From positions 2,372 to 66,371 of the IMG/VR virus record IMGVR_UViG_3300047539_000071: 64,000 bases of DNA. One strand, given 5' to 3'. The stretch comes from a virus. Taxonomy: Duplodnaviria; Caudoviricetes. The notes under the pieces are model-generated. The model was given only the letters and a program-made list of their open reading frames with translations, ran no database searches and had not been told where the DNA came from. This document shows, one piece after another, positions 26,969 to 45,631 of this stretch. Numbering within the stretch: the stretch's first letter is position 1; each line of letters starts with the position of its first letter. The translations under genes were made by a program, and so were the position numbers.

Positions 26969-26970
26969 CG

Positions 26971-27129: not shown

Positions 27130-27131
27130 TA

Positions 27132-27168: not shown

Positions 27169-27187
27169 CGCCGTGCGATAATCGGAT

Positions 27188-28846: not shown

Positions 28847-28988
28847 AGACGACAAGGTCGTAGAAAGCATCCGCAAGATCGTTACGACATTTCCGAAGCA
28901 TGCCATTTACGACTTCGGAGAGCAGCTAACGTGGCAGCAGATCGAGGCGTGGGGAAGACTAATCAACGAGCAATGGGGGAGCACATAA
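28836..28988 (+). CDS. Hypothetical protein (50 aa)
   Basis: Translated by hand (MENKDDKVV...); TAATG coupling to the next gene. Confidence 0.45.
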   Translation: MENKDDKVVESIRKIVTTFPKHAIYDFGEQLTWQQIEAWGRLINEQWGST

Positions 28989-29365: not shown

Positions 29366-29388
29366 GATAATCGATACTGAGGTTCGCA

Positions 29389-31806
29389 ATGGCAAGCACT
29401 TATAGCGGAAGCGAGAACACTGATCCGATAATGAAGCCTTCAGAGGCTCCAGGCGCTCCGGACGAGCAGGATACTCCTTCTGATCCATACAACCTAAAAG
29501 ACCCTGACGTACTCGCAGATATCAACGAGCGCATAGATCGCTGTCTTAAGGCCGATGCATTCTCCCGTATTTTTTTCGAGAATAATTGGGGCCGCAACGT
29601 TTTCTTTTATGCCGGTGCACAGTGGCTGCGTAAGGTCGGCGGCAAGTGGGAGCGCCGCAATCTACCCTCATGGTTCCCTCGCAGTCAAACCAACAAGTTC
29701 GCAGAGAAGGCAAACGACATCATTACCCAGCTGTTGACGGGCGGGCGCGTTCCCATCTCTTACTCGCCGGCAACCGACGATGAAGCCGACATAGGCGTGG
29801 CAGAAGTAGGTGAGAGCATCCGCGACGTGATGTACACCGAAGCGGAGTGTGACCAGCAGGCACAAAAGGTTGCGAGTTGGATGGTCATCACCGGCAATGC
29901 TTTCGGCATCCCGCACTACGACATGGATGATCGCTACGGAACTGTTGCGAACCCTATGGCTCAGGGCGCCGCAGGCCCGGAACAAAAACCAGAACTAGAT
30001 GCAGACGGTCAACCGAAACCAATTTGTGAATCTTACCCCCAGGGTGCGCTGCAATTAGAAGTGTGCGGCCCGTTTGAAATCCGTGGCGACTACCGCATCG
30101 ACGATGTCCGTAAGTGGAAGAATTTCGTTCACCAGAAGCGGTACGATTTAGCGTGGGCAAAAGAGCATTGGCCTGATTTCAAAGACAAGATTGAACCGGA
30201 TGCGGGAACCTCCAATGACACCTCCCAGTTCTTTATGGACTTATTTGCGAACCTCACTCCAGACTTTGCGTTTGGAGCGGGGTTGGCTTCGAACAGTTCC
30301 ACCAGCGGCAAGTATCCCAAGGTCACTGCCTACTGCATCCGCGAACTTCCTTCGAAGAAGTATCCGGAAGGGCTCTTTGCTATCCGGCTCGGGAAGACTT
30401 CCTCGGAAGCGATCGTAGAAGCCGGTCCTCTTCCACTAAAGTTTGGTGTCGGAGTGAAGAAAGGCCAATACATGCTGCCCTTAATTCATTGGGGCTGCAA
30501 TATCGTTCCTGGCCGTCTCTGGCGTAAGACGCCGATGGACGATCTAGTTTCAATGCAAGTTTTCCGCAACATGGTGGAAGCGAACATCCGACTGTCCGTG
30601 CAACGCATGGGGAACGCGGTATGGTTGCTGCCGAAGGGCTGCGGCGTGGATACATTGACGGGAGCACCGGGACAGCAGATTCCCTACAATCCTTTTGTAG
30701 TGGGCGGTACGCAATTTGCCAAACCTGAACGCGTACCGGCGGAATTAAATAACCTCGGCGCACTGATCGCTCTCTTGAAAGAGATCGATGGTTGGATGGA
30801 ACAAGTCGCCGGAACGTTCTTCTTGCAAGGCGGAAACGCACCCCCGGGTGTAACCGCAGCGTCAGCTCTCGCTTACCTCGGGGAGAAGGGCCAACAATCC
30901 CTATCTACCCTGCGCTCCGGATGGGCGCTTGGATGGGCAGAGTTTGACAAAATGGGCCTGGAGATCTGCCGAGAAAATTGGGATGACACAAGAATGCGAG
31001 CCGTAGCCGGAAAAAATCGGAAATGGCAAGTTGAGAAGTTCACCAAGGCAGACCTTCAAGGCTCAGTCAACATCATCATCGATTGGAACGCCCTAGCGCC
31101 GAAGTCTAACGCGACCGAACGCGCCACTATCGGCCAGCTGGTGCAGTTAGGGTTCGTCGATCCGCACGATCAAGAAATGCAGATCACCGTTCTAAAGAAA
31201 TTCGGCGAACTGTCCCTGAAGGGCTCGCTCGACATTGATATCGAGGATGCTGCAAAGGAACAGGACCGATTCATTCTCAAGAATCAGCAACCGCAGGTTC
31301 GCCCGTTCGTTGACAACTCGATGGTTCATTTGCGCGAGCATGTGGACTTTGCGAAGACCGATGAATTCAGGGAGATGCCGCAAGATAAGCAGGATGCGTG
31401 GTATGAGCACATTAAGAACACGGTGCTCGACATCACTACTCGCAGACAGATGCTGACGCAGACTGGTTTGGATCCTGACCAGCCGGCATTGGCTGAGGTG
31501 CCCAGCGCCGCAGCTGCGACCGCAGCTCAGGCAGCGCTACAAGCCCAGCAGCAACAGGCCGATGCTGCGGCAGCTCAGAACGGCGGCGTACCGAATGGCG
31601 CCGAGGGTCCGGATGCTCGACTAAATCCAGACGGTACACAGCCAGCACCCGCCCCGGACGGCAGTCAAATGCCCGACTTAGCGGACACCAACGCCCCGAA
31701 CGCGCCGCAGCAGGCAGCTGGCGGCCCCATACAGGCGGCCCCTATGGCGCAGCCCCCAAGCATTAAACCACCCGGTAGCCCGCGAACTATCGGAGTTCCG
31801 CAGTAA
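29389..31806 (+). CDS. Portal protein
   Basis: 805 aa after terL; FYAGAQW, TNKF, PATDDEAD, podoviral portal layout with disordered C-terminal tail. Confidence 0.85.
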   Translation: MASTYSGSENTDPIMKPSEAPGAPDEQDTPSDPYNLKDPDVLADINERIDRCLKADAFSRIFFENNWGRNVFFYAGAQWLRKVGGKWERRNLPSWFPRSQTNKFAEKANDIITQLLTGGRVPISYSPATDDEADIGVAEVGESIRDVMYTEAECDQQAQKVASWMVITGNAFGIPHYDMDDRYGTVANPMAQGAAGPEQKPELDADGQPKPICESYPQGALQLEVCGPFEIRGDYRIDDVRKWKNFVHQKRYDLAWAKEHWPDFKDKIEPDAGTSNDTSQFFMDLFANLTPDFAFGAGLASNSSTSGKYPKVTAYCIRELPSKKYPEGLFAIRLGKTSSEAIVEAGPLPLKFGVGVKKGQYMLPLIHWGCNIVPGRLWRKTPMDDLVSMQVFRNMVEANIRLSVQRMGNAVWLLPKGCGVDTLTGAPGQQIPYNPFVVGGTQFAKPERVPAELNNLGALIALLKEIDGWMEQVAGTFFLQGGNAPPGVTAASALAYLGEKGQQSLSTLRSGWALGWAEFDKMGLEICRENWDDTRMRAVAGKNRKWQVEKFTKADLQGSVNIIIDWNALAPKSNATERATIGQLVQLGFVDPHDQEMQITVLKKFGELSLKGSLDIDIEDAAKEQDRFILKNQQPQVRPFVDNSMVHLREHVDFAKTDEFREMPQDKQDAWYEHIKNTVLDITTRRQMLTQTGLDPDQPALAEVPSAAAATAAQAALQAQQQQADAAAAQNGGVPNGAEGPDARLNPDGTQPAPAPDGSQMPDLADTNAPNAPQQAAGGPIQAAPMAQPPSIKPPGSPRTIGVPQ

Positions 31807-31826
31807 TGCGGTAGAATAGGAACATC

Positions 31827-32165
31827 ATGTTACAGGAAACCAATTCATCAGTTTATCTGCCCAATGCCGTCGATGGCAACGGTTTCGCTTACCAGGTTCA
31901 GGAAACTCACACCGGGGGTGTTACCAATATCCCATCCGGCACCGGCTGCCAACCCGCTAACGGTTGCTGCCCCAATTGTGGGCGCTGCCCGCATTGCGGA
32001 CAGACGCCGATTAACCCGCCTCAGGTTCCGCATCACCTTCCCGCGTACACAATGACGCCACCATATCGCACGGAGAACGCGGCCTACGAAAGTTATCTCG
32101 AGTACGACACGGACGGTGCTGCTCATCGCGCGAACATGCAGAACCGCATGGACATCTCTCACTAA
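31827..32165 (+). CDS. Hypothetical protein
   Basis: CPNCGRCPHC; TAGAAT upstream. Confidence 0.5.
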   Translation: MLQETNSSVYLPNAVDGNGFAYQVQETHTGGVTNIPSGTGCQPANGCCPNCGRCPHCGQTPINPPQVPHHLPAYTMTPPYRTENAAYESYLEYDTDGAAHRANMQNRMDISH

Positions 32166-32491
32166 TGGACGCCGGAATTCAGTTGGCGCCACTCACGGAC
32201 CCGAAGCCGTGGGGATGGGTGGGACCGACGGAAGAAGATCTCTCCACCCGCCGCAAACCGCGACGTTATGCGACCGTAGATGTGGGCAAATGCGAACCGT
32301 GCCCTTGGCCTCTCGACTTCTGCATGTGGCTTGGGTCTGAACTCTTCTTCAGTAATCGCAGGCACATTCTTCAGATGACAGGCGCGACCTGGATAGGCGA
32401 CGACCCCGTACCCACGAATGGTACACTGGCACAGGGACTAGAAACATGGTTAAAATCTGTATCCGGTCTCTCTGAAGTAGCGCACAACTAA
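32165..32491 (+). CDS. Hypothetical protein
   Basis: TAATG coupling. Confidence 0.55.
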   Translation: MDAGIQLAPLTDPKPWGWVGPTEEDLSTRRKPRRYATVDVGKCEPCPWPLDFCMWLGSELFFSNRRHILQMTGATWIGDDPVPTNGTLAQGLETWLKSVSGLSEVAHN

Positions 32492-32569
32492 TACCGGAGC
32501 AGAAGAACTCGAAAGAGTACCGGACTCAAACGGCGGAATGTTCTGACTATGCCGACTAGGTAGTGCACT

Positions 32570-33280
32570 ATGCGGCGCATTCTCGCTCTTCTTCTGTCCG
32601 TAGGTATGGCTCTATGCTCTTTCATCGGACTGCCCACGGGGTATGCTAAATCCCAGCGCCACAAAGCCGCCCACATCATACTCATGACTGCCGGCGATCG
32701 CAAAGCCGGTTGCTCGGCTACAGCAGTCGGCCCGCACACCTTACTCACTGCGGAACACTGCTACGTTGGACAAAACACCTTACTCGGGATGACTCTCGGA
32801 CAAGATGTTTGGGGTCCGGAGAAACTTTACATCGACTCAACTGTTGATGAAGTCCGCGCTGGTACAGCGGTGCAGCACGTCATCAAACGCATCATTCTCG
32901 ACCATCAAGATCACATGCTGCTGGATTTCGGATCCGACACTCACTTCACGACATTCATTCCGATGAAATTTCGGGAGCCGGTACAGGGGGAACATTACTA
33001 CCTGTTCGGCAACCCCGCCCTTATCGTAGACCAGTACCGCGAGGGTTATGTGACGGGCAAAGATAATATGTCACCGGACGAAGAAGGGTTGGAATACTTC
33101 ATCTCCCATACATGCTATCTGTTGTCGGGCCCGGTTGTGGGCGGGGATAGCGGGTCGTCCATTTACGCCCTAGATGGTACACTCATTGGCATTACCACGT
33201 ACGGTCTGGAGGATGGTGCGTTCATCGGTTCGTACCCGATACGATTTACCGCTTCTCAAATCAATGAATCTTTGATATAA
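32570..33280 (+). CDS. Trypsin-like serine protease with signal peptide
   Basis: Catalytic triad TAEHC, QDH, GDSGS; hydrophobic N-terminus. Confidence 0.88.
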   Translation: MRRILALLLSVGMALCSFIGLPTGYAKSQRHKAAHIILMTAGDRKAGCSATAVGPHTLLTAEHCYVGQNTLLGMTLGQDVWGPEKLYIDSTVDEVRAGTAVQHVIKRIILDHQDHMLLDFGSDTHFTTFIPMKFREPVQGEHYYLFGNPALIVDQYREGYVTGKDNMSPDEEGLEYFISHTCYLLSGPVVGGDSGSSIYALDGTLIGITTYGLEDGAFIGSYPIRFTASQINESLI

Positions 33281-33289
33281 AGGGGAATC

Positions 33290-34015
33290 ATGACCACAAA
33301 GAGAAAGAGTGATCAGGAACCGTCCGCGGAAGAGAAGCAGCTCTTCCTAGCCCAAGCCGCGCAGGCTAAAGCCGAGGCTCTGAAAGCAGAGCACGAAGCA
33401 GAAGGCCACAGATTCCAGACAGCGAACATCCGCCTTCAGTATGAAGAGAACAAGCGCGTAACTGACACAGTGTTGGCTGGCGACAGCTACCACCACGTCT
33501 ACCGCTTCCAGCAGGAAGTGGACGAGCTATCGACTTCCGTTTGCATGTCCACCCTTGCGCGGTGGGCGCGCATGGACCCTAAGTGCGATATGGAAATCAT
33601 CTTCAATTCCCCCGGCGGGTCCAGCATCCACGGCCTCGCACTGTACGATTTCCTGAAAGACTTGACGCGCAAGGGACATTTTATCCGCACGAAAAGTCAA
33701 GGCATAGCCGCCTCTATGGCGGGTGTTCTGCTTCAGGCGGGCACTGTTCGTGTGATGGGCCGAGAATCCTGGCTTCTAATCCACGAGGCTTCTTTCGGGG
33801 TGGGCGGCAAGATTGGTTCCGTGGACGACACGGTTGAATGGGTCCGCAAGATGTGTGACCGCATGCTCGATATTTTCTCGGAGCGGGCGGCAGAAGCAAC
33901 ACATAAACCTGTGAAGAGCGTTAAGGCTTTCATCAAGAAGAGCTGGACTCGAAAGGACTTCTGGGTGTCCTCGGACGAAGCCCTTAAATATGGGTTTATT
34001 GACGAGATAGACTAG
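33290..34015 (+). CDS. ClpP-family protease
   Basis: NSPGG, AASMAG, LIHE, DEALKYGFIDEI. Confidence 0.9.
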   Translation: MTTKRKSDQEPSAEEKQLFLAQAAQAKAEALKAEHEAEGHRFQTANIRLQYEENKRVTDTVLAGDSYHHVYRFQQEVDELSTSVCMSTLARWARMDPKCDMEIIFNSPGGSSIHGLALYDFLKDLTRKGHFIRTKSQGIAASMAGVLLQAGTVRVMGRESWLLIHEASFGVGGKIGSVDDTVEWVRKMCDRMLDIFSERAAEATHKPVKSVKAFIKKSWTRKDFWVSSDEALKYGFIDEID

Positions 34016-34056
34016 GGCCTATTGCCGCTGCGGTAAACTATAGGCTGGAGCCTATT

Positions 34057-34239
34057 ATGCCGTGGGACGAAGTTTTGGACAAATGGAAGGCGGGCAAGTT
34101 GCATTCTGGATCCAAAACTGGTCCCGATGTGACCGGCCAAAAGCAGGCAGTAGCGATCATGCTGTCAGAGAAGAAGGCCGCTGGTGAAGGGAAGAAAGAA
34201 TATTCCGCATCCGGGTTCTCGGGAGTCAAACACACCTAA
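34057..34239 (+). CDS. DUF6496-like small basic protein
   Basis: KAGKLHSGSKTGP.V...KQAVAIMLSE. Confidence 0.75.
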   Translation: MPWDEVLDKWKAGKLHSGSKTGPDVTGQKQAVAIMLSEKKAAGEGKKEYSASGFSGVKHT

Positions 34240-34360
34240 ATGCTTCGTTTGCGAAAAACCTATAACGAAGGTAATCGAGTTCGATAATCGCCAGCAGTGG
34301 TGCAAGAAATGCTGGAAAGAACACTTGCGCGAGTTGCGCTCACTCTGATATAGTCTCCTC

Positions 34361-35338
34361 ATGTCACGCAATAAGCAGCCCTTCTGGAAACAGAAACCAC
34401 AGAACGTGGCGCCGCAGGCACAGCCACAAACCCCTCCCCCTAACGCCCCAAGCTATGCGCCGGTAGCCGGCAAACCGCCGCTCAAAGTCCTGGTAGCGAT
34501 TTTCACCGGCGAAGAACGCCACGGTTGGGTCAACCCCCGGCTGGCAACGACTCTCCTGAAGATTGCATTTGACCGACGTATTGCCATGAGCTTCGTGCCG
34601 GTCCATGCGGTTCATCCGATCTGCGCCGCCCGCAACATGGCGGTCAGCGAGTACTTCCTGAAGAGTGATTGCGACATGCTGGTGATCTTCGACAATGACG
34701 TTTGTCCTCCGGACAACGTAGTAGATGCCTTTATAAGCATGCCCGATGAAGCCAACGTCGGCGTGTTGCCGTATTGGGTTTGGCTGCCGGATAAGAAGCA
34801 CACGATGCCTTGCTTCGGTCATTGGGAAGACGGCGTAATGATCATCCCTGATCCGACCACCATCAAACGCGGGTGGCAGAAGATGGGTGCTGGCGGTACC
34901 GGCTGCATGTTTATTCGGCGGAAGGTATTCACGTCCCCCGACAAATTGGCAGCACCGTTCTTCAAGATCATCTCGACAGCCGAGAAGGGTCAGGTCGTGA
35001 GCGAAGATATCTATTTCACTGGGCGGGCCGCGGAAGCGGGTTTCCCGACATGGCTCAACCCCGACTTCATTTGCAGCCACATGCACACCGTCGATTTGGC
35101 GGAAATCAACATGGGTACGGTGATGATCCTGAACAGATTCACCGAAACCCTCAAAGCTAAGTACGGCGAGAATGGCGTAAAGCTCGGCACATTGATTCAG
35201 GAGCTGGCGCCGGAACTCAAGGAGTCTGCGGAGAAACTCCGAATCATCTCTGACGCAGCCTATGATAGCGTTGCGCAGTCCGAGAAGGAAGGCGCGGAGC
35301 GCCAGGAAATCAGCCGCAAAGCAATCAAAGAGGGATAA
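34361..35338 (+). CDS. GT-A glycosyltransferase (GT2-like)
   Basis: ARN, FDND (DxD), GTGCMFIRR.VF, SEDIYF. Confidence 0.85.
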   Translation: MSRNKQPFWKQKPQNVAPQAQPQTPPPNAPSYAPVAGKPPLKVLVAIFTGEERHGWVNPRLATTLLKIAFDRRIAMSFVPVHAVHPICAARNMAVSEYFLKSDCDMLVIFDNDVCPPDNVVDAFISMPDEANVGVLPYWVWLPDKKHTMPCFGHWEDGVMIIPDPTTIKRGWQKMGAGGTGCMFIRRKVFTSPDKLAAPFFKIISTAEKGQVVSEDIYFTGRAAEAGFPTWLNPDFICSHMHTVDLAEINMGTVMILNRFTETLKAKYGENGVKLGTLIQELAPELKESAEKLRIISDAAYDSVAQSEKEGAERQEISRKAIKEG

Positions 35339-35470
35339 TGACTAAATATTTGACTGGCAAACCTTTCTCAGTGGCGTGCTCTCGCGGCAACCTAACCGAC
35401 ACGGAGTACTTTGTCCGTGTTGGCGCTCTTGTATATTGTCCGACTTGTAAGACGGAGAAAGCCCCACAAC

Positions 35471-35644
35471 ATGAGCACTCGACAAACACAGATCGTAAAG
35501 GAAATTGAATTCATCCAGCAGCGTGCGCTGCATCTTGCTGTGCAACCGCGGAACGTCTACGGCGTGCTCCTGCGAGAGGATGACCGTGCAGAGGCGGGCA
35601 TGCTCCGTCAACTGATCGAAGAGTTGGAAGGTGAATTGCTATGA
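35471..35644 (+). CDS. Hypothetical protein
   Basis: 57 aa, overlap-coupled. Confidence 0.45.
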   Translation: MSTRQTQIVKEIEFIQQRALHLAVQPRNVYGVLLREDDRAEAGMLRQLIEELEGELL

Positions 35645-35802
35645 ACGACACCGCCACTCGCTACTTAACGGGCACCGGCTTTATGATCTGCGCCGGTTGC
35701 CTCGTCTACTTAGGGCAATCCGTCTTCTCACTCATCCCCGCTGTTGCCGGCGTGGTTGTGCTCGGCTCGCTACTACTTGACAAGATCCGGGAGGGCAAAT
35801 GA
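35641..35802 (+). CDS. Small two-helix membrane protein
   Basis: MNDTATRYLTGTGFMICAGCLVYLG...; ATGA overlaps. Confidence 0.5.
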   Translation: MNDTATRYLTGTGFMICAGCLVYLGQSVFSLIPAVAGVVVLGSLLLDKIREGK

Positions 35803-37427
35803 CGAGCGCCGTAATTGGGGTGGTTAAAGACTGTGGATGGGAATACCTTCGCAATTACGCCGTCTCCCTATCCCGCTGCGGATTTGATGGCGACAAGGTT
35901 CTGTTCGTGGACAACATCACAGATGATGCTTTCACGAAACTGCTTGGCCTCGGCTTCACGTTGGTCAACTACAACGCGCCGAAAGATCTGGACGGCAAGA
36001 AGTTCAACTCCTGGGAAGACGGAATGGCCTGGGGCTTCTTTGGCCGCTGGCGCTTTGCTCCGGTGATCGATTGGCTGAAAATGGACTTAACCCCCGGCGG
36101 CCCCGCGCGCATCGATAACTATCGATACATCGTTTGGTGCGACGTGCGGGATGTGATGTTCCAATTGGATCCGATTGAGTGGATGAACGATCAGAGCCCA
36201 ATCGCTCTCGGGCACCTGTACGGCGCAGCGGAGGGTTGCATTATCAAAGACCAACCGCACAACGCGAACTGGGTGCAGCGGACTGCCCCCGCATTGTGGC
36301 ATTGGATGCAGAATGAAGAAGTCCTCTGCTCGGGCACCTTTGCGGGAGATGCCTCTACCATGCTGAAGGTTTTCGAGCATATGTACGGCCTGCATGAGAG
36401 CGTGAAGGATATGGCAGCGTTCGATCAGGGGTTGTGGAACGTGACGGCGCGCACGCACCCATTCAAAACGACCCTTAACATCCCGAAGATGAAGAAAGGT
36501 TTCTGCGCAACGGGCTGGCCGTCGAAGGCTAAAGATTTCAGTCCCTATACGACCGATACGGAACCGGTATGGAATTGGGAGGACATGATTTGCGAAGCCC
36601 CCGAGACCGGCATTCCCTTCGCAATAGTTCATCAATATGATCGCGAACCTCGGTGGCGCGATAAGATCAACGACATTATGAGCGAAAGCGCCCCGGTCGA
36701 ACGGATGCAGCAAATACCGGCGAACCCGATGATCCTTATCGTGTCCTGCGAAGCCTACAGGCACAACGGAATCCAAGACGCTATCCGCAACACATGGGCG
36801 AAAGGTCTGAAGAATTACAAGTTCCTGCTAGGCCACAATTGCCTTGGGACGCCTATTGCTGAGGATGAATTGGTGGTTCTCGCGGACGATGACTACGCGA
36901 GCATCTGCTGGAAACAGCGAGAGGCTTACAAGGCTCTGCTGGCAGAAGGACCGTACACCGGAGGACCGAACTCGAATCCGTACACGCACGTTTTTACGTG
37001 CTGCACAGACACCTATGTAATTCCTGACCGGCTGTGGCAGTGCGGCTATGAGAAGCATGCATACTGCGGATCGGTAGTTCAGCATGCTGCCTCCGTAATG
37101 GGCAACATCCCGTTCGCGCAAGGCGGGGCGGGCTTCTGGCTCAACAGGCGTGCACTTGCGATCCTGGCCAACGACAAGTCCTGCCGGCTGCTTCCACCGG
37201 ACATCTGGGTGAGTTACGTTTTGTCGAAATTCAACATCCCTTGCGCCCACGCTGCGCAGGCGTTCTGGCACGGCTTTCCTGTGCCCGAGCCATTTGAATC
37301 CGACAAGGTCGTCACGATGCACCTATCGCGAGGGACGGGGAAGTACGATCCAGAGTGGATGCTAGACGTTCACGGCGTATTCACCCGAACCGGGAAGCTA
37401 CCCGTACCGGGCCGACAACCACTATAA
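35799..37427 (+). CDS. Two-domain glycosyltransferase (GT-A plus GT31/Fringe-like)
   Basis: DVRDV.FQ, SGTFAG, DQG, VHQYDR; then IRNTW, DDDY, CTDTYV, GGAGF, PDIW. Confidence 0.8.
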   Translation: MTSAVIGVVKDCGWEYLRNYAVSLSRCGFDGDKVLFVDNITDDAFTKLLGLGFTLVNYNAPKDLDGKKFNSWEDGMAWGFFGRWRFAPVIDWLKMDLTPGGPARIDNYRYIVWCDVRDVMFQLDPIEWMNDQSPIALGHLYGAAEGCIIKDQPHNANWVQRTAPALWHWMQNEEVLCSGTFAGDASTMLKVFEHMYGLHESVKDMAAFDQGLWNVTARTHPFKTTLNIPKMKKGFCATGWPSKAKDFSPYTTDTEPVWNWEDMICEAPETGIPFAIVHQYDREPRWRDKINDIMSESAPVERMQQIPANPMILIVSCEAYRHNGIQDAIRNTWAKGLKNYKFLLGHNCLGTPIAEDELVVLADDDYASICWKQREAYKALLAEGPYTGGPNSNPYTHVFTCCTDTYVIPDRLWQCGYEKHAYCGSVVQHAASVMGNIPFAQGGAGFWLNRRALAILANDKSCRLLPPDIWVSYVLSKFNIPCAHAAQAFWHGFPVPEPFESDKVVTMHLSRGTGKYDPEWMLDVHGVFTRTGKLPVPGRQPL

Positions 37428-37441
37428 CGGAGGGCGTTGTT

Positions 37442-39160
37442 ATGAAGATCTACGATTGCATCATGTTCAATGGCGAGCACGACGTACTCGAGGTTCGCCT
37501 CAACGAGCTCGATCCTCTCGTTGACCACTTCTTCATCTGTGAGAGCCTCGAGCCTCATGGCGCCGCAGGCACTCGAAAGTACCAAAAGTTTGACCAATCG
37601 CTGGTTCAGGATTTCAAAGACAAGATAACTTACATCGCGCTAAACTATCTTGAGCCTGCCTACACGGATGCGAAGAGCGGTTGGGCGAGAGAGAACTTTC
37701 ACCGGAACGCCCTGTTTCAGCATTTGCTGAAACTGACTAATCCAGTGATAGGTCCGGAAGACATAATCCTTAACTGTGACGCAGACGAGATCCCGCGCCC
37801 CCAGGCGGTCGTGGCTGTAGCCGAAACCGCTCCCGATGATCAGGTCGTGTACTTCGACATGCTCATGTACTACTACAACGTCAACAACCAAGTGAACTGC
37901 GCATGGCGGCGGGCGAACATGGGTAAGTTTAAGGTGTATCAAAAGCTCGGCGGCTTCCAGGCGCCTCGCGGCATTTTGGACATGCCGTTGACTTCCGGCA
38001 CTCCTATTGTCGTCGTAAAGAACGGCGGTTGGCACTTCAGCTACTTCAGCGGAGTGGATGGGGTGCTAGATAAAGTCCGAAGTTTCGCACATTCTTCGGA
38101 CGCTGCTTCGAAAAAAATCGCGGAGAAAACAGGCCGCGAGATAGCAGAGATGATATCCTCTCGGGCAGACCCTTTCCACGAAGGCGTAAAGTTCGTTTAT
38201 ACCCCCTGCACCGATCCGCAACTGCCCACCAGCGTGACTCAGAGGCGGCAACACTTCGCCAAGTTGACTGGCGAGTACTTCGACACTGTGAACAATGTTC
38301 TGCCGCCGAAGACGTGCGGGACGACAGATGCTGTGATCGGCGTTATTCGTAATTACGATTGGGGCAACATCAAACCCTACGCACTCTCCCTGGCTCAGTC
38401 TGGTTTCAAAGGCGAGAAGATCATGTTCTGCAAGAACGTCTCGCGAGCATGTCAGACGAGGCTCACTGAAACTGGCTTTACCGTAATACCTTACGTGGAT
38501 AGCCCGGAGACGGATGCCGCGGAAGCGGGGAGCTATATGGTGTTCAACGTTCACCGCTTCAGGCCGGTGATTGAGTTCCTATCCAAGCATGCCGACAAGT
38601 ACCGCAATATTCTGTGGTGCGACGTTCGCGATGTGGTATTTCAAAGCAACCCTGGTCACTTCATGAAGAGTAAATTGACCGGCCCTATCCGCATCCTCGC
38701 AGCCAGCGAGGGGTTCAGGATATCGGAAAACATGGAATATAACGACCGCTGGCTGGCCGCAGCGGCTCCTGAAGCCTACAAAGAACTACGGAACAACGAG
38801 GTCTGCTGCGACGGCACAATAGCTGCTGACGCCTCTATGATGCTGCGACTCTTCGAACGCATCTATGAGCGCGCGATTGTGGCAGGCAACGATCAGGGCG
38901 TATTCAATTACCTGATCCGAAAACCGTACGCGCACGTCACGCGCATCCCCTCGCAGACGGAAGGCTTCATCTCCACTTGGTTCCCGGAGAAGACTGCGGA
39001 GCGTGCTCCGAATCTACCGGACAGCTACGGCGGAATACCAGTATTCGATGAGACGTCTGGGGTTGTATATACCCCAGATGGGCGCACAAAGTTCGCAGTC
39101 GTTCATCAGTTTGACCGATCACCGCGATGGAGTAAGATCTTCCAAGAGAAGTTTGCATGA
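37442..39160 (+). CDS. Two-domain glycosyltransferase (GT17-like plus GT-A)
   Basis: YDCIMFNGE.DVLE.RL, DADEIP, GGWHFSY; C-terminal domain paralogous to the 35799 N-terminal domain. Confidence 0.85.
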   Translation: MKIYDCIMFNGEHDVLEVRLNELDPLVDHFFICESLEPHGAAGTRKYQKFDQSLVQDFKDKITYIALNYLEPAYTDAKSGWARENFHRNALFQHLLKLTNPVIGPEDIILNCDADEIPRPQAVVAVAETAPDDQVVYFDMLMYYYNVNNQVNCAWRRANMGKFKVYQKLGGFQAPRGILDMPLTSGTPIVVVKNGGWHFSYFSGVDGVLDKVRSFAHSSDAASKKIAEKTGREIAEMISSRADPFHEGVKFVYTPCTDPQLPTSVTQRRQHFAKLTGEYFDTVNNVLPPKTCGTTDAVIGVIRNYDWGNIKPYALSLAQSGFKGEKIMFCKNVSRACQTRLTETGFTVIPYVDSPETDAAEAGSYMVFNVHRFRPVIEFLSKHADKYRNILWCDVRDVVFQSNPGHFMKSKLTGPIRILAASEGFRISENMEYNDRWLAAAAPEAYKELRNNEVCCDGTIAADASMMLRLFERIYERAIVAGNDQGVFNYLIRKPYAHVTRIPSQTEGFISTWFPEKTAERAPNLPDSYGGIPVFDETSGVVYTPDGRTKFAVVHQFDRSPRWSKIFQEKFA

Positions 39161-40260
39161 GAGAAGACTTTCTAATTGTGGGCGCGGGGATCACGGGGCT
39201 GACGATAGCAGAGCGGTTGACGAGCATCGGCAAAACAGTAACTATAGTGGATAAGGAGCTCTATATCGGCGGCAACTGCGCCGATCGCTTCAACGAGCAC
39301 GGCATCCTAATTCATCCGTTCGGCCCACATCTGTTTCATACCAATTCGAAGAAAGTATTTCGCTACCTCTCACAGTTCACGGATTGGATCCCCGGCGACT
39401 ACCGCGTGAAAAGTTTCAACGGTGGAAAGCATTGGAGCTTCCCTATCAACCTTGAAACTTTCGAAATGCAATACGGCAAGCTGACGACGCCGGAAGTCAT
39501 GGCGGGTTGGTTGAAGGCGCAAACTCCAAACTACGGCACCCCGAATAATTTCGTAGAGGCTGTAGTTGGGAAGATCGGCTGGGGCTGGTACAAACAATTC
39601 TACGAGGGATATACGACTAAAATGTGGGGCTGTCACCCTGAGGATTTAGATGCTTCTGTTGGGCGCCGGATACCTGTCCGCACCAACCGCGACGACCGAT
39701 ACTTCGACGATGAGTACCAGTTCATGCCGAAGCAAGGCTACTCCACCATGTTCGAAAACATGCTCGGGTACAAAGACAATCTTAAAGTGCTTCTCGGTAT
39801 GGACCGGGAAGAGTGGCGCCAGATGATGAAACTCGCAAAACATACAATTTTCACCGGGGCAATCGATGAGTACTTCAACTACGCGTGGGGAGCGCTCCCC
39901 TACCGAACCTTGCGATTCGAGCATGAGACTTTCCCGACTGACCTTGTGCAGCCTACAGGCATTGTCACTTATCCCGAATTCTCCACTTCACGCACTCGTT
40001 CGGTCGAAATCAAACACTTCACGAAGCAAGCGCACCCAAGTACGACGGTTGTTACGGAATACCCTGAAGAGTGGGCTCATGGCCGGGAGCGCCTTTACCC
40101 CGTCCCCACACCCACTGCCCGGGAGCGACACGGCAAGTACGCACGCATGGCGCGGGACCATAAGAACGTCACGTTCCTCGGAAGGCTCGGGACGTATCGC
40201 TACCTAAACATGGATCAGGCCGTTGGTGCGGCCTTGATGACTTTCGACAGGATGTTCTGA
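39157..40260 (+). CDS. glf: UDP-galactopyranose mutase
   Basis: GAGITG, IGGN, H.FGPHLFHT, EGYT.K.WG, YFDD.YQ, GRLGTYRY.NMDQ. Confidence 0.95.
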   Translation: MREDFLIVGAGITGLTIAERLTSIGKTVTIVDKELYIGGNCADRFNEHGILIHPFGPHLFHTNSKKVFRYLSQFTDWIPGDYRVKSFNGGKHWSFPINLETFEMQYGKLTTPEVMAGWLKAQTPNYGTPNNFVEAVVGKIGWGWYKQFYEGYTTKMWGCHPEDLDASVGRRIPVRTNRDDRYFDDEYQFMPKQGYSTMFENMLGYKDNLKVLLGMDREEWRQMMKLAKHTIFTGAIDEYFNYAWGALPYRTLRFEHETFPTDLVQPTGIVTYPEFSTSRTRSVEIKHFTKQAHPSTTVVTEYPEEWAHGRERLYPVPTPTARERHGKYARMARDHKNVTFLGRLGTYRYLNMDQAVGAALMTFDRMF

Positions 40261-40457
40261 AGAGTAGTTGGTTTCCCGAGAGCATCACAAACCGCAGCGT
40301 CCGCGTGAAACGCAATCAAACCGCACGCCAAGATCTTCGATAAAGTCGTTTTGTGGTTCCGCAGCTCGTAGACACCTACCGCGGCGATCAGCAAATGCCA
40401 AGCGGATTTGTATGCGCGCTCAATGTGATCGCTGCGGTAAGTGTGGCGCTGCCTCAT
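40215..40457 (-). CDS. Small antisense-oriented hydrophobic protein
   Basis: TATGCT box 6 nt upstream of ATG; two hydrophobic stretches. Confidence 0.45.
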   Translation of the reverse strand: MRQRHTYRSDHIERAYKSAWHLLIAAVGVYELRNHKTTLSKILACGLIAFHADAAVCDALGKPTTLQNILSKVIKAAPTA

Positions 40458-40541
40458 TCCTCAAGCATACCCTAACCTCTGATAAGATTGCTATAGTATC
40501 CACCTACGGTAAAGGTGGGGGCAACTATCGAGGCGAACACC

Positions 40542-41114
40542 ATGATTAATTTAAGAAATGAAGGCGACTTCCCGATCGTAATGAAGCTCAAGGGATCGTT
40601 GACCACGACTGGCGTTGGGAGCTATGATTTCTCGGCTCCGATTCCGTTCAACAGCATTCTGAAAGCAGTTTGGGCTTACGAAGGCGCGGGCGGATACTCT
40701 GCCCACGGCGGCGTGCCGGATGCAGTCGATCTTCAATACGGTGCGCCCGGTGTCGCGCCGACAACTCTTTTGACAGCGGGAAACTGGATGTTCAACTTCC
40801 CGAATTCGAGTTTGGCAACGAACGTTGCGACAGCTCTCGCGCTCGACACGATCATCCCTGTAGCATTACCCGGGGCGGCTGCCGCGACGGTGAGTGTTAC
40901 GGTCGGAGGCTACGGAGTGGCGAACATCACCTCTACCGTTGGTAACCCTCCGGTGTTTGTGCGCGGTGGAATTTTGAAGATCGTGGTCGAAGCAATCTCG
41001 ACGACTGCCGGCAGCGATCTGACAGTAGTTTGCGAAGTGGCGCGATCTCGACAGGGCTGCAATTGGGAGCCAGTTGAGACGGGGACTTACGGAACCGACA
41101 GCGACATTTTCTAA
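40542..41114 (+). CDS. Probable virion structural (capsid decoration-like) protein
   Basis: Beta-rich, Gly/Thr/Ala-rich; upstream of scaffold. Confidence 0.5.
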   Translation: MINLRNEGDFPIVMKLKGSLTTTGVGSYDFSAPIPFNSILKAVWAYEGAGGYSAHGGVPDAVDLQYGAPGVAPTTLLTAGNWMFNFPNSSLATNVATALALDTIIPVALPGAAAATVSVTVGGYGVANITSTVGNPPVFVRGGILKIVVEAISTTAGSDLTVVCEVARSRQGCNWEPVETGTYGTDSDIF

Positions 41115-41182
41115 GTTTGCGGGGGCGCCCGCTATGACTGTAAATCGATCGGCAACTCCGATCTAAACAGGATGGTTACGTG

Positions 41183-42109
41183 ATGGCAGAAGAACTCGAT
41201 GATCTGGCAACTCCAGAACTTGAGGTCGATGAGCAAGTAGTGGATCAGGATGATTCTGATGCACCAGTGGTAGACGAGCCGTTCTTACCAGTGAACGATC
41301 GGACCACGTATAGGACGAGGGAAGACGCCATAGCAGGCTTCAATTCCGCGGCCCAACGGATCCAGGAACTGTCACAGTGGGAGAAGCAGGCCAAACAGTG
41401 GAACCTAACGGACCCGCGGCAGCTTGACGCAGTAGCCAACGAACTCCTCGCACTGAGGAAAGAGAAGGCAGAAGCGGCAGCTCAAGCAGGTAAGCGCAAT
41501 ACGGCTACCGTTTCGGACCCAACGGACCCGAAAGCCAAAGAAGAGGCTCAGGTTCGCGAGTACATGAAGAACCTCGGATATATCTCGAAAGAGGATCAAG
41601 AAGAGGCTCTGAAGGAACTTCGCGAAGCTGTAGCTGAAATGAGGAATCAGGGCTCGCAGTCGAGGGAGCTGGGCTTCCAAGCACAGGAAGCGGATGCCCG
41701 AGACGCAGTGGAAAAGTATATCGCTGCAGACGGATTTAAGGATCCGGCAGGGACGAAGTCCAACGTGATCGGAACACTGATCAAGGACTGGATCAACAGC
41801 AGCGATGACCGGATTGATGAGTGGTCTAAGGGCGGCAGAGCCGCAACGGCCCTCGTAAAGCAAGGTTACGATCTTGCGCTCAGTCATCTGGAATGGAAGC
41901 CGGTTGTCGGCACAGTCCAGAAACCCGCTGATCAGAATTATTCCTTAGACAAGGCGAAAGCTATGGCTAGGAACAAGAAAGGTTTACCGGCGCAGGGACA
42001 AGGGAAAGACCGGGACAAGGACGGTAAGTTCACGACTCCGAAGCAGAAGGGGCACATTAATGCCGAACTGCACGAGCGAGCGTGGAAGCACCTCCAAGAA
42101 ACGGATTAG
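41183..42109 (+). CDS. Capsid scaffolding protein
   Basis: Acidic N-terminus, coiled coil, basic C-terminus; directly upstream of MCP. Confidence 0.7.
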   Translation: MAEELDDLATPELEVDEQVVDQDDSDAPVVDEPFLPVNDRTTYRTREDAIAGFNSAAQRIQELSQWEKQAKQWNLTDPRQLDAVANELLALRKEKAEAAAQAGKRNTATVSDPTDPKAKEEAQVREYMKNLGYISKEDQEEALKELREAVAEMRNQGSQSRELGFQAQEADARDAVEKYIAADGFKDPAGTKSNVIGTLIKDWINSSDDRIDEWSKGGRAATALVKQGYDLALSHLEWKPVVGTVQKPADQNYSLDKAKAMARNKKGLPAQGQGKDRDKDGKFTTPKQKGHINAELHERAWKHLQETD

Positions 42110-42146
42110 TCTCTAACTCCCAGCCGCATCGATCAACAGGAGCGTT

Positions 42147-43472
42147 ATGGCAGGAGCAACAGTTTCATCGTTTTCGTCCGCACTCAAGAACGTGTACCTT
42201 CCTGGTATTCGCGAAGAGCTCAACGAGAAGACCAATCTTCTCGACCTCTTCACGGAAGGCGACTTAACCCAATACGAATGGCAAGGTAACCAGCTTGTCT
42301 TCGCTCTTCACTCTTCGCGTAACTACAGCGGCGTCATGTACGTTGCTGAAGGCGGCGCGTTGCCAGTGGCCGGATCTCAGGGAGTTGTAAACCTGAACAT
42401 CCCCATCGCTCACCTTAAGGGACGTATTCAGTTGTCCTACGAAGTGATGCGAGCCTCGCGTTCGGACAAGGGTTCGTTTGTCCGCGCGATGGATCTGGAA
42501 CAGAAGGGTCTCGTGAACGACGTAGCCCGTCAGCGCAACCGTGCGCTCGCCGGCTTCGGTTCGGAAATTCTGGCAGTATCCACCTTGAGCACCTCCGGAG
42601 TCAGCTTCACCGTTGACAACCCGGGCGGGGTTCTGGGAACCACCAACCCCGTCCGCTTCATTAAGGTCGGGATGATCATCGTTAGCCAAGCAGTTGTGGG
42701 CGGCGCTGTTCACGGTGTGGGAACTGTCACGGCTGTGTCCGGTTCGCTCGTTACTGTCGCTGCTGCGATGGGATCGACGTCCGGCGATGTGATCACGCTA
42801 GGAACCACCTCCGTCTCCGCGACGGGCGCCGGCTCCTACGGTCTGAACCCCGGTCCTGATGGGACTGTCGGCGCAGACACCAGCGATATCGCTTCACAGG
42901 GTATTCTGGGCCTGATCGACAACGGAACCTACATTGCGACGATCTTCGGTTTGGGTCGGACTGCCAATGCGTTCTACAACAGCACCGTCATGACGAACGT
43001 CGGAACCATTAACACCGACATTCTTCAGCGCGGCGTGGACAACACTGAGGAAGTAAGCGGCGAGATGATCGACAAGTTCATCTGCCACAGCTCAGTGCGG
43101 CGCGAGATTTCGAAGTTGACGGAAGCCGATCGGCGCTATGCGTCCGATGCAGCTCCGAAGAACTACGACGCCGGTACCCTGGCTGGTGCGAACAAGAAGG
43201 ATCTGACCTACAACGGTTGGTCTTTCCGTACCGACAAGGACTTCGCGTACGGTTGCTTGGCCGGTGTGAACACTTCACACTTGCAGTGGCTGCCAGAAAC
43301 GAAGGGTGAGTGGGCTGAGGATGATGGAACGATTCTTCTGCGCGTTGCCAATGTGGACGCATACGAAGCTCGTTTTCGTGTCAGCGAAAACTTTGCGACT
43401 GACAAAGCGAACGCTCACGTGATGTTTTCCGGCGTCACGGTCAATATTACGTCGGGAGTCTATGCAGATTGA
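42147..43472 (+). CDS. Major capsid protein
   Basis: 441 aa after scaffold; AGGAG RBS; followed by a strong terminator. Confidence 0.88.
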   Translation: MAGATVSSFSSALKNVYLPGIREELNEKTNLLDLFTEGDLTQYEWQGNQLVFALHSSRNYSGVMYVAEGGALPVAGSQGVVNLNIPIAHLKGRIQLSYEVMRASRSDKGSFVRAMDLEQKGLVNDVARQRNRALAGFGSEILAVSTLSTSGVSFTVDNPGGVLGTTNPVRFIKVGMIIVSQAVVGGAVHGVGTVTAVSGSLVTVAAAMGSTSGDVITLGTTSVSATGAGSYGLNPGPDGTVGADTSDIASQGILGLIDNGTYIATIFGLGRTANAFYNSTVMTNVGTINTDILQRGVDNTEEVSGEMIDKFICHSSVRREISKLTEADRRYASDAAPKNYDAGTLAGANKKDLTYNGWSFRTDKDFAYGCLAGVNTSHLQWLPETKGEWAEDDGTILLRVANVDAYEARFRVSENFATDKANAHVMFSGVTVNITSGVYAD

Positions 43473-43497
43473 GCATATTGCTTGAAGTTAACAACTT

Positions 43498-43527
43498 AGG
43501 CCCCTCTTTTGAGGGGCCTTTTCTTTT
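43498..43527 (+). terminator. Intrinsic terminator after MCP
   Basis: AGGCCCCTC-TTTT-GAGGGGCCT followed by a T-rich tail. Confidence 0.85.
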
Positions 43528-43543
43528 GTGTTATATTTAAGGC

Positions 43544-44026
43544 ATGCCAAAAACAATAGAAGAAATCCGTGCAGCTTCTAACGAACGCCAAAAACTTTAC
43601 CGCGCTCACCATCCACAGCGCGCAAAAGATTCGGTGAGAAAATGGAAAGAGAAGAATCCGACATACTTTATAGAGTGGAGAGAAAAGAACCCTGCCACTG
43701 TTCTGATAGGGTTCGCGAAAGCGCGTGCCAAGAAAGGTCGCCTTCCGTTCGATCTGTACGAACACACGGAAGAGATACAGCGCCGCCTCGGTGCCGGAGT
43801 TTGTGAAATGAGCGGCCTTCCTTTCGAGAAAGGGATAACAGTGCCCGGGCCTCTTAGCGCCAGCATCGATCGCATCGAACCAAAATTGGGGTACGTCTAC
43901 TCAAACATTCGCATAATCTGCCTTGCTCTTAATCGCGCTTTCGGCGATTGGGGAGAAGAGGAGCTGTTCCGAATCGTAGATGCCGTGCGTGCTAGAATCA
44001 GTCAAGCGCCAATATCGAACGCATAA
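43544..44026 (+). CDS. His-Me finger-like endonuclease (free-standing, homing type)
   Basis: AKARAKK, CEMSG, SIDRI..LGY..SNIRIIC..LN. Confidence 0.7.
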   Translation: MPKTIEEIRAASNERQKLYRAHHPQRAKDSVRKWKEKNPTYFIEWREKNPATVLIGFAKARAKKGRLPFDLYEHTEEIQRRLGAGVCEMSGLPFEKGITVPGPLSASIDRIEPKLGYVYSNIRIICLALNRAFGDWGEEELFRIVDAVRARISQAPISNA

Positions 44027-44100
44027 CTGGCTTCTTCCGTTGCGCTGCGGAACGCCGATAACACTTCAAACCGCGGGGGTTGCCCCCGAAGAGGAGCGTC

Positions 44101-44616
44101 ATGGAAGCACTACAAGCGCGAGTCCGCATCATCCTACCCGAGAACGAAACCTACAATCAGGAAACCGGCGAAGCAATCACCGGCGCAGCCGTTCTCAAGC
44201 AAATGAAAATCAACAACGTTTGGCGCAATGACGCCAAAGGCCGGTATGCCGCGACCATGTACGATGGTCAGACGTTCAAATTCCGAGAGGGCGAAATCAC
44301 CATCGTGCCCGTCACCGTAGCCCGCCACCTTCGCCGCATGTCGGCCATCGTAGTCGGCCCAGACAAACTCAATGGCCCGCTCATGCCATACCTCGAGATC
44401 GTCGATACCTACGACATGACGCAGCCCCAGAAGGTAACGGTTGAAGTCCCTGCAAAGACCACACCGACAACGTGCATGATCTGCGGTAAGGATCAGCTAA
44501 CGTTCCCGGCCCTAATGCGCCACCAGATGTCAGAGCACGCCGACCAGTTCGAAGAGAAGAAGGCTTCGAAGAAGTCCGCGGCAACGCAATGGGACGCGCC
44601 AGAGTCCGAGGAGTAA
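44101..44616 (+). CDS. Protein with C-terminal C2H2 zinc finger
   Basis: CMICGK......LMRHQMSEH; GAGGAG RBS. Confidence 0.7.
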   Translation: MEALQARVRIILPENETYNQETGEAITGAAVLKQMKINNVWRNDAKGRYAATMYDGQTFKFREGEITIVPVTVARHLRRMSAIVVGPDKLNGPLMPYLEIVDTYDMTQPQKVTVEVPAKTTPTTCMICGKDQLTFPALMRHQMSEHADQFEEKKASKKSAATQWDAPESEE

Positions 44617-44829
44617 ATGGAGCACGTTCTCGTAAAGAAGTCCTCGCATATCATGTCGGTCGGGTACGATCCCGACCGGCGTGAGATGCAGATTGCTTTC
44701 CACAACGGAAAGACGTATTCTTACCCCAGCGTCCCCGAGCACGTCCATAAAACGATGATGGTGACGGGATCGAAGGGTGAGTACTTTCACCGGCACATCA
44801 ATTCGAAATTCAAAGGGGTGGAACTGTGA
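44617..44829 (+). CDS. KTSC-domain protein
   Basis: SSHIMSVGYD..F.NG.TY.Y..VP..SKGEYF. Confidence 0.9.
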   Translation: MEHVLVKKSSHIMSVGYDPDRREMQIAFHNGKTYSYPSVPEHVHKTMMVTGSKGEYFHRHINSKFKGVEL

Positions 44830-45014
44830 GCACTACGCAATTATCCGTAGCAGCAATCGAGGCCCTCGAAGCACTCGAGCGGGTTCAAGAGTTATACGGC
44901 ACTGGCACCGCCGCGGACCACCGCGCCCGGTTAGACCACGCACACGACCTTATGGAGAAAGCCGGGTTCGTACGCCTCGAGTTCCCACCGGAGGCTGTCA
45001 ATGAAGCCGCCTAG
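44826..45014 (+). CDS. Hypothetical protein
   Basis: Overlap-coupled. Confidence 0.45.
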   Translation: MSTTQLSVAAIEALEALERVQELYGTGTAADHRARLDHAHDLMEKAGFVRLEFPPEAVNEAA

Positions 45015-45585
45015 TTGGTTCACGCAGCTGCTAGCGCAAATGGACCCGCTATTATCCGTCCGCAGATCGATAGTCACCAACCATTGGGTTATCGAGCGGA
45101 AGGGCGTCATCGTGGGATCCGAAATCGAGACCCTAAAGCGCCGCAGGGACAGGTTCTATAAGTGGATTACATATCCCGCCACACCAGAACAGCGCGAACA
45201 GATTCACAAGAATCGGAAAGAGTGGCAGTCGTTGTCTGACGAGGTTGCTTCCGCGGAACAGCAGAAGCGCGTTATTTGCCGGCCCCGCACGATCAACCGG
45301 CAAGTTTACGACGATCTGTGCCAAGCGGATATCCAGCGGTACGGCGGCTTCGCACGCTTCTGTACTGAGACCGAGCAGCACGAGGAGCGGCTCGAAGCAG
45401 ACCAGGAGCGAGTTCTGTCGAACAGGCGCAAGGCGTTTAATGCCGAAGTGTTCGATATGCTCTCGTTCTTGCGCCGTAAACGGCTTACGGCCCTTGACCA
45501 CAATAAAGACGATATGAAGTTCCTTCTTCATGGCACCCACACGGCTGAAGGGGAAGGTCCGGTGATTAAGTTAACTGACTTCTAA
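45001..45585 (+). CDS. Hypothetical protein
   Basis: GGAGG RBS, 194 aa. Confidence 0.65.
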   Translation: MKPPSWFTQLLAQMDPLLSVRRSIVTNHWVIERKGVIVGSEIETLKRRRDRFYKWITYPATPEQREQIHKNRKEWQSLSDEVASAEQQKRVICRPRTINRQVYDDLCQADIQRYGGFARFCTETEQHEERLEADQERVLSNRRKAFNAEVFDMLSFLRRKRLTALDHNKDDMKFLLHGTHTAEGEGPVIKLTDF

Positions 45586-45631
45586 ATGAGGACTCACAGG
45601 GCTGTACAATATATTAGGGACTGGAGTCAAC

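Follow-up and report, generated by a model that had tools for sequence, protein, structure and literature searches.

A glycosyltransferase island with its own UDP-galactopyranose mutase among the head genes of a peat phage, and its possible acceptors

The question raised by the locus described here is why a phage should carry five glycosyltransferase (GT) domains, together with an enzyme able to supply galactofuranose (Galf), in the middle of its head genes. The whole stretch of DNA analysed, referred to below as the window, is 64,000 nucleotides long and comprises bases 2372-66371 of the 66,371-bp IMG/VR record IMGVR_UViG_3300047539_000071, the completeness of which is put at about 96% by CheckV; in all statements of absence made below it must be remembered that some 4% of the genome may lie outside the record. 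The genome is of podovirus-like type and belongs to peat and permafrost. On its + strand the gene order runs terminase, portal, trypsin-like protease, ClpP-type head protease, island, capsid, SU10-type adaptor and tail genes, the island itself (34361-40260, +) consisting of six catalytic units, namely the five GT domains and Glf, a UDP-galactopyranose mutase (UGM). An initial annotation, made from the letters alone, had placed such a set within the head module, and this placement holds, with the portal, trypsin-like protease and ClpP genes upstream and the major head protein gene downstream.

The answer preferred here, to which we would give a little less than an even chance, is that the island encodes a soluble, cytoplasmic line of enzymes building a glycan, Galf included, on the phage's own particle proteins late in infection. 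The argument proceeds by elimination and by analogy with the mycobacteriophage Corndog, and starts from the identities of the domains and from the way in which the genes are packed and conserved.

Catalytic domains and gene packing

Family and structure comparisons assign every one of the six units to GT-A, GT31-like, GT17 or Glf. To judge from its sequence, Glf is a full-length UGM: it matches Pfam GLF at 227 bits (1.8e-67, positions 1-203 of 203) as well as NAD_binding_8, has the motif GAGITG at residues 9-14, and aligns over its full length with solved UGMs at E values of 3e-102 to 8e-64, the best of these being the D. radiodurans mutase 3hdq (residues 4-366, E 3e-102), with the conserved loops kept. 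The N-terminal domain of P3 is also matched directly, by Pfam PF04724 Glyco_transf_17 (67.8 bits against a cut-off of 26, 1e-18, residues 30-269), which bears out the GT17-like label given to it in the initial annotation. The start codon proposed there for P3 (GTG 37355) is almost certainly to be replaced by ATG 37442, which lies 14 nt past the P2 stop and has GGAGG before it.

For P1 and for both domains of P2 there is no direct match in Pfam or the Protein Data Bank (PDB), and alignments of homologs were therefore built, using an exhaustive HMMER search together with a word-index search; searching the PDB directly with the sequences of P1, P2 and P3 returned no match. Among GenBank phages, the island had no match by megablast and P2 none by tblastn, while P1 found a single 67-residue match (E 9e-4).

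The AlphaFold2 (AF2) model of the P2 N-terminal domain (P2N), with a predicted local distance difference test score (pLDDT) of 94.6, has a GT-A fold. Its neighbours by VIA-align cover residues 1-300 at Z scores of 16.6 to 13.7 for BoGT6a, GTB, LgtC, the GT8 domain of WbbM and glycogenin; individual values are 16.6 for BoGT6a, 16.2 for mimivirus R699, 16.1 for LH3, 15.0 for LgtC and for WbbM-GT8, 14.1 for A64R of the chlorovirus PBCV-1 and 12.1 for AfGfsA (8yrl). Residues D115-x-x-D118 and H278 are invariant in 52 sequences and would, by their positions, correspond to the Asp motif after beta-4 and the C-terminal metal-binding His. The P3 C-terminal domain (P3C) is a paralog of P2N, as the initial annotation had held: the two are 35% identical over 291 residues (BLASTP E 9e-51), and P2 and P3 share the motifs WCDVRDV.FQ, DQG..N and VHQ.DR. 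GT-A domains of this type in the window have no Pfam match, their profile finds nothing in the PDB, and PF03407 is reached by only 3 of the 52 homologs, at an E value of 1e-3 at best; they probably constitute an undescribed family, without Pfam model or name.

The C-terminal domain of P2 (P2C) has no Pfam match by itself, and it is the profile of its 37 homologs that identifies it, matching C1GalT1 (7q4i) at E 3e-14, B3GalT6/5 at 2e-8, and also B3GNT2 and Fringe; 14 of the 37 match Pfam Galactosyl_T (PF01762). Throughout the family the DDD motif of GT31 is replaced by C-T-D, with ctDtY standing opposite the DDDTY of C1GalT1 (P2 itself has C-C-T-D-T-Y). Since this canonical (DxD) metal-binding motif is absent, the domain is called GT31-like here and not GT31, so that the initial annotation, which had used the same term, was right as to the relationship while the canonical motif is missing. 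The link to the fungal GfsA Galf-transferases, which it had cited as GT31 enzymes, is best regarded as a lead, AfGfsA being a mid-rank neighbour of the other (GT-A) domain of P2.

For P1 the AF2 model (pLDDT 83) again has a GT-A fold, with A197 of Sulfolobus turreted icosahedral virus (STIV) as its nearest neighbour (Foldseek E 7e-10); the P1 profile also reaches the PDB entry of that protein, 2c0n, at E 2e-3. Residues D111-N-D113 and ED 215-216 are invariant, the N-terminus is Pro/Gln-rich and poorly ordered, and the C-terminus forms a helical tail of about 80 aa. P1 had been labelled GT2-like: the modelled fold is GT-A, and the GT2 label itself is weak, the only match being Pfam Glyco_tranf_2_3 at E 0.081 (13 bits, cut-off 27). 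In PHROG, P1 matches phrog_12406 ('glycosyltransferase') at 8e-5.

None of the GTs has a typical 19-residue hydrophobic window by a hydropathy heuristic, and thus neither a transmembrane (TM) helix nor a signal peptide was detected in any of them by this measure, in agreement with the earlier claim that no GT of the set carries a signal peptide. The genes are tightly packed. Three small open reading frames (ORFs), orfA, orfB and orfC, bridge the 460 nt that separate P1 from P2, with successive junctions TAATG, a 38-nt overlap, ATGA and ATGA, and the seven ORFs from P1 to glf, being joined by overlaps or by the 14-nt spacer, make up one chain (Table 1). The translational coupling noted in the initial annotation stands in this sense, the three small ORFs having been missed there. 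All three are conserved in relatives, orfA at 41-68% identity in more than 15 contigs (in some of which it lies upstream of P1), orfB at 34-55% and orfC at 43-64%, orfC being missing from contigs L005, L093 and L100. The order of the three relative to P1 differs among relatives. The GC fraction across the island is 0.53-0.55 and is even over the window; an Rfam scan of 33900-41300 gave only a chance-level match.

Table 1 Features of the island and of the adjoining head genes (window coordinates)
Feature	Coordinates	Strand	Basis or remark
ClpP-type head maturation protease	33290..34015	+	Pfam CLP_protease 4e-23; phrog_94 5e-48; upstream border of the island
orf60, small conserved late protein (60 aa, DUF6496)	34057..34239	+	Pfam DUF6496 1e-5
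P1, A197-like GT-A	34361..35338	+	AF2, Foldseek, profile
orfA, 56 aa, Cys...Cys-Pro-Thr-Cys	35338..35508	+	Read from sequence; start overlaps P1 stop (TAATG)
orfB, 57 aa, charged, probably helical	35471..35644	+	Read from sequence
orfC, 53-aa hydrophobic hairpin (small membrane protein)	35641..35802	+	ATGA overlaps with orfB and P2
P2 N-terminal domain, retaining-type GT-A fold	35799..36683	+	AF2, VIA-align
P2 C-terminal domain, GT31-like	36723..37427	+	Profile of homologs
P3 N-terminal domain, GT17, D-A-D-E motif	37442..38161	+	Pfam Glyco_transf_17
P3 C-terminal domain, paralog of P2 N-terminal GT-A	38324..39160	+	BLASTP, shared motifs
Glf, UDP-galactopyranose mutase	39157..40260	+	Pfam, solved UGMs; ATGA overlap (4 nt) with P3
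TATAGT box (40492-40497) and RNA-contig starts	40492..40519	+	Sequence by eye; contig ends without loose letters
p199, beta-rich, fast-evolving	40542..41114	+	Candidate decoration/cement-type protein and candidate acceptor
Probable scaffolding protein (309 aa), acidic N-terminus, charged, helical	41180..42109	+	Sequence and position before the capsid gene
Major head protein, Ser/Thr/Gly-rich at about residues 145-250	42147..43472	+	phrog_14242 5e-37; composition
Strong intrinsic terminator (9-bp stem) after the capsid gene	43498..43519	+	Terminator scan

Constant core and variable units

The order ClpP, orf60, P1, small ORFs, GT-A recurs in contigs L004 and L005 and in about 25 short peat contigs, the slot occupied being that which follows ClpP and orf60 and precedes the p199-scaffold-capsid block; orf60 is found at the same position in relatives in copies 55-88% identical. 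Comparison of gene order in related phages, which had been put forward as a check on the initial annotation, thus finds the island's position kept. What fills the slot falls into two parts: P1 and one GT-A domain form a constant core, while the GT31-like domain, the GT17 domain, the second GT-A domain and the sugar-supply genes vary. This split is also seen in the rates of divergence, P1 being 60-67% identical in about 25 relatives and P2N 57-63%, as against only 31-41% for P2C. Compared with L004 alone, the core (P1 63%, P2N 62%) has diverged about as far as the scaffold (62%) and ClpP (60%), whereas the GT31-like domain (31%), GT17 (41%), P3C (37%) and p199 (35%) have diverged fast.

The contents of individual islands differ accordingly. 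In L005 there is nothing beyond P1 and a GT-A domain standing alone, and L105 has the arrangement P1-orfABC-GT-A-Glf. In L004 both fusions are accompanied by a DegT aminotransferase, an E1-like protein, an epimerase/dehydratase, a methyltransferase and an N6/N4 DNA methylase, and Glf was not found in the 18.2 kb examined of this 19.6-kb contig. The idea that one given domain might be named as the user of UDP-Galf was considered and rejected, as L004 keeps both the GT31-like and the GT17 domain without Glf in those 18.2 kb. In two unrelated viral contigs, L013 and L016, a GT-A domain, a GT31-like domain and Glf stand side by side within larger sugar clusters.

The GT-A family has at least 493 confirmed matches in IMG/VR and is essentially absent from GenBank phages. 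One group of loci (L024, 7279-8843, and about 50 similar IMG/VR loci), on aquatic phage contigs of 60-170 kb, has the GT-A gene after a GT2 gene and among genes for DnaB helicase, a DruA-like protein, DUF6267, a nucleotidyltransferase/kinase and a methyltransferase; these may represent a different use of the family.

Which acceptor?

Several considerations argue for particle proteins as the acceptor. The island is co-oriented with the head genes and embedded in them, there being no strong + strand terminator between 27161 and 43498 (the only one in 26500-46400 other than that after the capsid gene lies at 27132-27161); about 25 related contigs keep it in this position; the genome encodes no route to a hydroxylated DNA base; no Gtr/Wzx/Wzy-like membrane machinery was seen; the GT genes of Corndog (gp36-38) likewise lie directly upstream of a capsid protease and capsid gene; and the fold neighbours of the island GTs include enzymes that work on viral particles (A64R, R699 and A197). 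Should this be correct, P1 and the P2N GT-A domain, which are constant and conserved like portal and scaffold, would install one or more conserved inner sugars, the likeliest acceptors being head proteins, i.e. p199, the capsid protein in its Ser/Thr-rich stretch, or both. The GT31-like domain, GT17 and the second GT-A domain would then extend the chain, and Glf would convert UDP-galactopyranose (UDP-Galp) of the host into UDP-Galf, such that at least one extension step would add galactofuranose. Relatives, in retaining the core and exchanging the outer transferases and sugar-supply genes, would make different outer glycans. The acceptor, the order of the steps, the domain using UDP-Galf and the late timing are in this scheme all proposals of ours.

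The closest precedent is found in mycobacteriophages, whose GTs are described, in two articles citing Freeman et al. 2023 (PMC12619734, PMC12363180), as glycosylating capsid and tail-tube proteins, the systems named there being Che8 gp108-110, Corndog gp36-38 and Myrna (PMC12363180, PMC12619734). Both cases involve several soluble phage GTs, in Corndog beside the capsid protease and capsid gene. In the mycobacteriophages the glycans are built on cytoplasmically assembled particle proteins, as is proposed for the island; the latter employs other GT families, has two-domain fusions, Glf and three small ORFs, and its host is probably a Gram-negative bacterium of peat. By analogy, then, the island may work like the mycobacteriophage system without being a member of it. 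A second precedent is provided by the viral enzymes already mentioned, from chlorovirus (A64R), mimivirus (R699) and STIV (A197), which are the nearest structural neighbours of P1 and P2N and in which a virus-encoded GT-A enzyme decorates the capsid or fibrils of its own virus without recourse to the secretory glycosylation of the host; the viruses concerned are, however, eukaryotic or archaeal, and the likeness is at fold level only, with 9-18% identity.

Several observations weigh against particle glycosylation, and are best considered together. Nothing in the sequence ties any GT to the capsid protein, and the fold matches of the island GTs are generic GT-A matches. Against Che8 gp108-110 and Corndog gp37-38, phmmer and profile comparisons gave a best score of 9 bits, which is not meaningful. 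In other lineages, the largest included, the GT-A family has genes for DnaB, polymerase, primase and endonuclease around it, and none of the 49 neighbours there belongs to a head or tail family. The translational coupling of orfC to P2 in most relatives hints at work at a membrane, and a short tyrosine recombinase (197 aa) is encoded in the genome, so that lysogeny may be possible. The portal-to-capsid slot is in any case plastic, since in MW202554.1 (L091, 3277-8777) it also holds sugar-active genes. (These encode a 'glycoprotein repeat' protein, a concanavalin-like lectin/glucanase and a polygalacturonase-like protein, and are of a degrading kind, opposite to that of the island genes.) Finally, four peat metatranscriptome runs contain long contigs of high depth that begin, across three studies, at 40514, 40517 and 40519 and run as far as 43475, thus spanning exactly the p199-scaffold-capsid block downstream of the TATAGT box. 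The cover of the island consists only of short, low-depth contigs, which may be DNA carry-over, and RNA contigs cannot rank expression; as a weak hint, the contig boundaries suggest that the abundant capsid mRNA is a unit of its own and that the island probably lies outside it.

What, then, of other acceptors? If the island served to remodel the host envelope, it would place Galf side chains on host lipopolysaccharide (LPS), exopolysaccharide (EPS) or a PEP-CTERM-type glycoprotein, during infection or lysogeny, so as to block superinfection or to avoid the loss of progeny on debris, with orfC tethering P2 to the inner membrane. We regard this as unlikely, but it is the rival to be taken most seriously, and it is kept in view of the recombinase and of the coupling of P2 to a membrane mini-protein. 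The hairpin encoded by orfC is conserved as well as coupled, yet L005, L093 and L100 retain P1 and the GT-A domain without it, and by the hydropathy heuristic it is the sole membrane candidate: neither the island nor its surroundings showed a GtrA/B/C-like protein, flippase, polymerase or initiating phosphoglycosyl transferase, and TM segments are absent from all the GTs. In favour of this rival, solubility or a peripheral location is likewise known from GT-A enzymes that use undecaprenyl-linked acceptors. WbbM, a Galf/Galp O-antigen enzyme, is a fold neighbour of P2N (Z 15.0); WbbM and GfsA resemble the island in combining a GT8-like or GT31 domain with a Glf-supplied donor, and differ from it in acting on lipid-linked O-antigen or fungal mannan, while no DUF4422/GT111 Galf-transferase domain was detected in the island proteins. 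It also speaks for the envelope that the slot of the distant relative MW202554.1 carries other carbohydrate-active genes, and that the candidate hosts, Acidobacteriota, are rich in EPS, with the reservation that the host link is weak. On the other side, the island sits in the late structural block, neither beside the recombinase nor in a moron position near the genome end, and its core GTs are conserved like structural genes, which is unusual for conversion cassettes; such cassettes track host serotypes.

A role in DNA hypermodification, in which the GTs would put galactose or galactofuranose on a modified base and so evade restriction, is very improbable. It is suggested by the Rhizobium phage RL38J1 (Pootjesviridae), in which a phage Glf is assigned to a pathway to glycosylated 5-hydroxycytosine, and where a phage UDP-galactopyranose mutase adjoins phage GTs, as it does here (PMC13326640). 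The clusters of Pootjesviridae, however, contain a thymidylate-synthase-type 5hodCMP synthase and nucleotide kinases and lie amid nucleotide-metabolism genes (PMC13326640), all of which are missing here, and the requirement of that pathway for a thymidylate-synthase-type enzyme, absent here, argues against DNA as the acceptor. More generally, ThyA, ThyX, TET/JBP dioxygenases and C5 methylases (PF00303, PF02511, PF12851, PF00145) are absent from the 66-kb, roughly 96%-complete record at E values up to 1, in searches to which control genomes responded, so that no known source of a hydroxylated base is encoded. The DNA GTs of RL38J1 were matched by their authors to an alpha-1,2-glucosyltransferase and a UDP-GlcNAc 2-epimerase as templates, and not to GT6, GT8, GT17 or GT31 (PMC13326640), and known DNA systems have one to three GTs, far below the five domains of the island, which is in addition located in the head block. 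That the GT-A family adjoins replication genes in other phage lineages, that genes for a dNMP phosphatase and a DNA methyltransferase are present, and that the L004 island contains its N6/N4 DNA methylase are the remaining points in favour. Rather less improbable, but still doubtful, is some other acceptor, such as the tail fibre (57797-59500), the secreted trypsin-like protease, host proteins, or a free or cytoplasmic oligosaccharide. The tail fibre, with its chitobiase-C repeats, is 30% Ser/Thr, the protease bears a signal peptide, and the mycobacteriophage tail tube is glycosylated too (PMC12619734); nevertheless nothing specific indicates these targets, the protease would be out of reach of cytoplasmic GTs once exported, and a tail-protein target would overlap with glycosylation of the virion.

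Glycosylation of particle proteins accordingly remains our preferred explanation. Of the corresponding interpretation in the initial annotation, the multi-GT set, the phage's own supply of UDP-Galf, the soluble GTs and the location in the head block are all upheld, and the virion acceptor is a proposal. A more specific version, which we consider possible rather than probable, is that in these peat phages, probably infecting Acidobacteriota, the island is a modular 'virion serotype' locus, in which a fixed initiating pair is combined with exchangeable outer GTs and sugar cassettes and co-diversifies with a surface decoration protein. Such a locus would provide Galf in the present phage and amino, deoxy or methyl sugars in its relatives.

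To our knowledge, particle glycosylation has so far been shown for only a few mycobacteriophages. If it occurs here, it would be the first case outside actinobacteriophages and the first with galactofuranose, carried out by a widespread unnamed GT-A family, and its presence in an unrelated podovirus-like peat phage would make this a strategy of wider reach among phages, and one whose genetic logic is clearly modular. When set against the Glf-linked DNA modification of Pootjesviridae, it would also mean that one kind of donor-supply gene has been taken up by phages to serve different purposes. For enzymology, the island offers two natural two-domain GT fusions, a GT31-like family in which the usual metal motif is missing, a GT-A family, so far undescribed, which uncultured phages carry very commonly and cultured ones lack, and a phage Glf the product of which has to be used by one of the island's enzymes.

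Capsid block, host and wider genome

Of the genes that follow glf, which the initial annotation had read differently, the first, of 199 aa, more probably encodes a decoration-type protein with a beta-sandwich fold, and the 309-aa product is the probable scaffold. No match to p199 was found in Pfam or PHROG; its atlas neighbours are viral hypothetical proteins and jelly-roll or galactose-binding-like folds, with 'cement protein' at only 0.78, and it is 30-38% identical in relatives as against 60-78% for the genes beside it. The scaffold candidate has no family match. With RNA contigs starting at 40514-40519, the annotated GTG start of p199 at 40515 would be unusable and ATG 40542 is likelier, and the region 40492-40519 is probably, as a weak hint, a promoter or the 5' end of the capsid mRNA. 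A sigma-70 promoter scan gave results no richer than shuffled sequences, and the predicted fold of the intergenic region 40261-40545 was not better than shuffles (z -1.2).

The same DNA recurs in peat and permafrost metagenomes of many studies, while the closest GenBank phage capsid, from the uncultured podovirus MW202554, is only 39% identical. The host is probably a Gram-negative bacterium from peat. Inference of the host from Glf homologs failed, the best of them not exceeding 51% identity and those few that bear a name coming from Verrucomicrobiota; Acidobacteriota may be candidates. In a scan of genome contigs, a Bryobacterales metagenome-assembled genome (MAG) gave one 6-kb contig with only a P1-like gene, and since that gene stands alone it provides no evidence of an integrated prophage.

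The replication genes encoded are those for DNA polymerase A, an exonuclease, a primase-polymerase/helicase and a ligase. The dNMP phosphatase (phrog_318, 1e-58) and DNA methyltransferase (phrog_757), at window positions 523-1137 (-) and 1855-2430 (-), suggest roles in the nucleotide pool and in DNA methylation, without a hydroxymethylase. The trypsin-like serine protease (32570-33280, +), between the portal and ClpP genes, is 28-57% identical in relatives and has a clear N-terminal signal or lipoprotein-like peptide, a secreted protease within a head module being unusual. The tail-fibre-like protein (57797-59500, +) has three chitobiase/hexosaminidase C-terminal repeats and a Ser+Thr content of 30%, and may be a glycan-binding protein or an alternative target of glycosylation. 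Lastly, an endonuclease VII/HNH-type gene (43544-44026, +) lies directly 3' of the capsid-gene terminator and further HNH genes are found at 8088-8699 and 11834-12424, all of which resemble mobile nuclease insertions.

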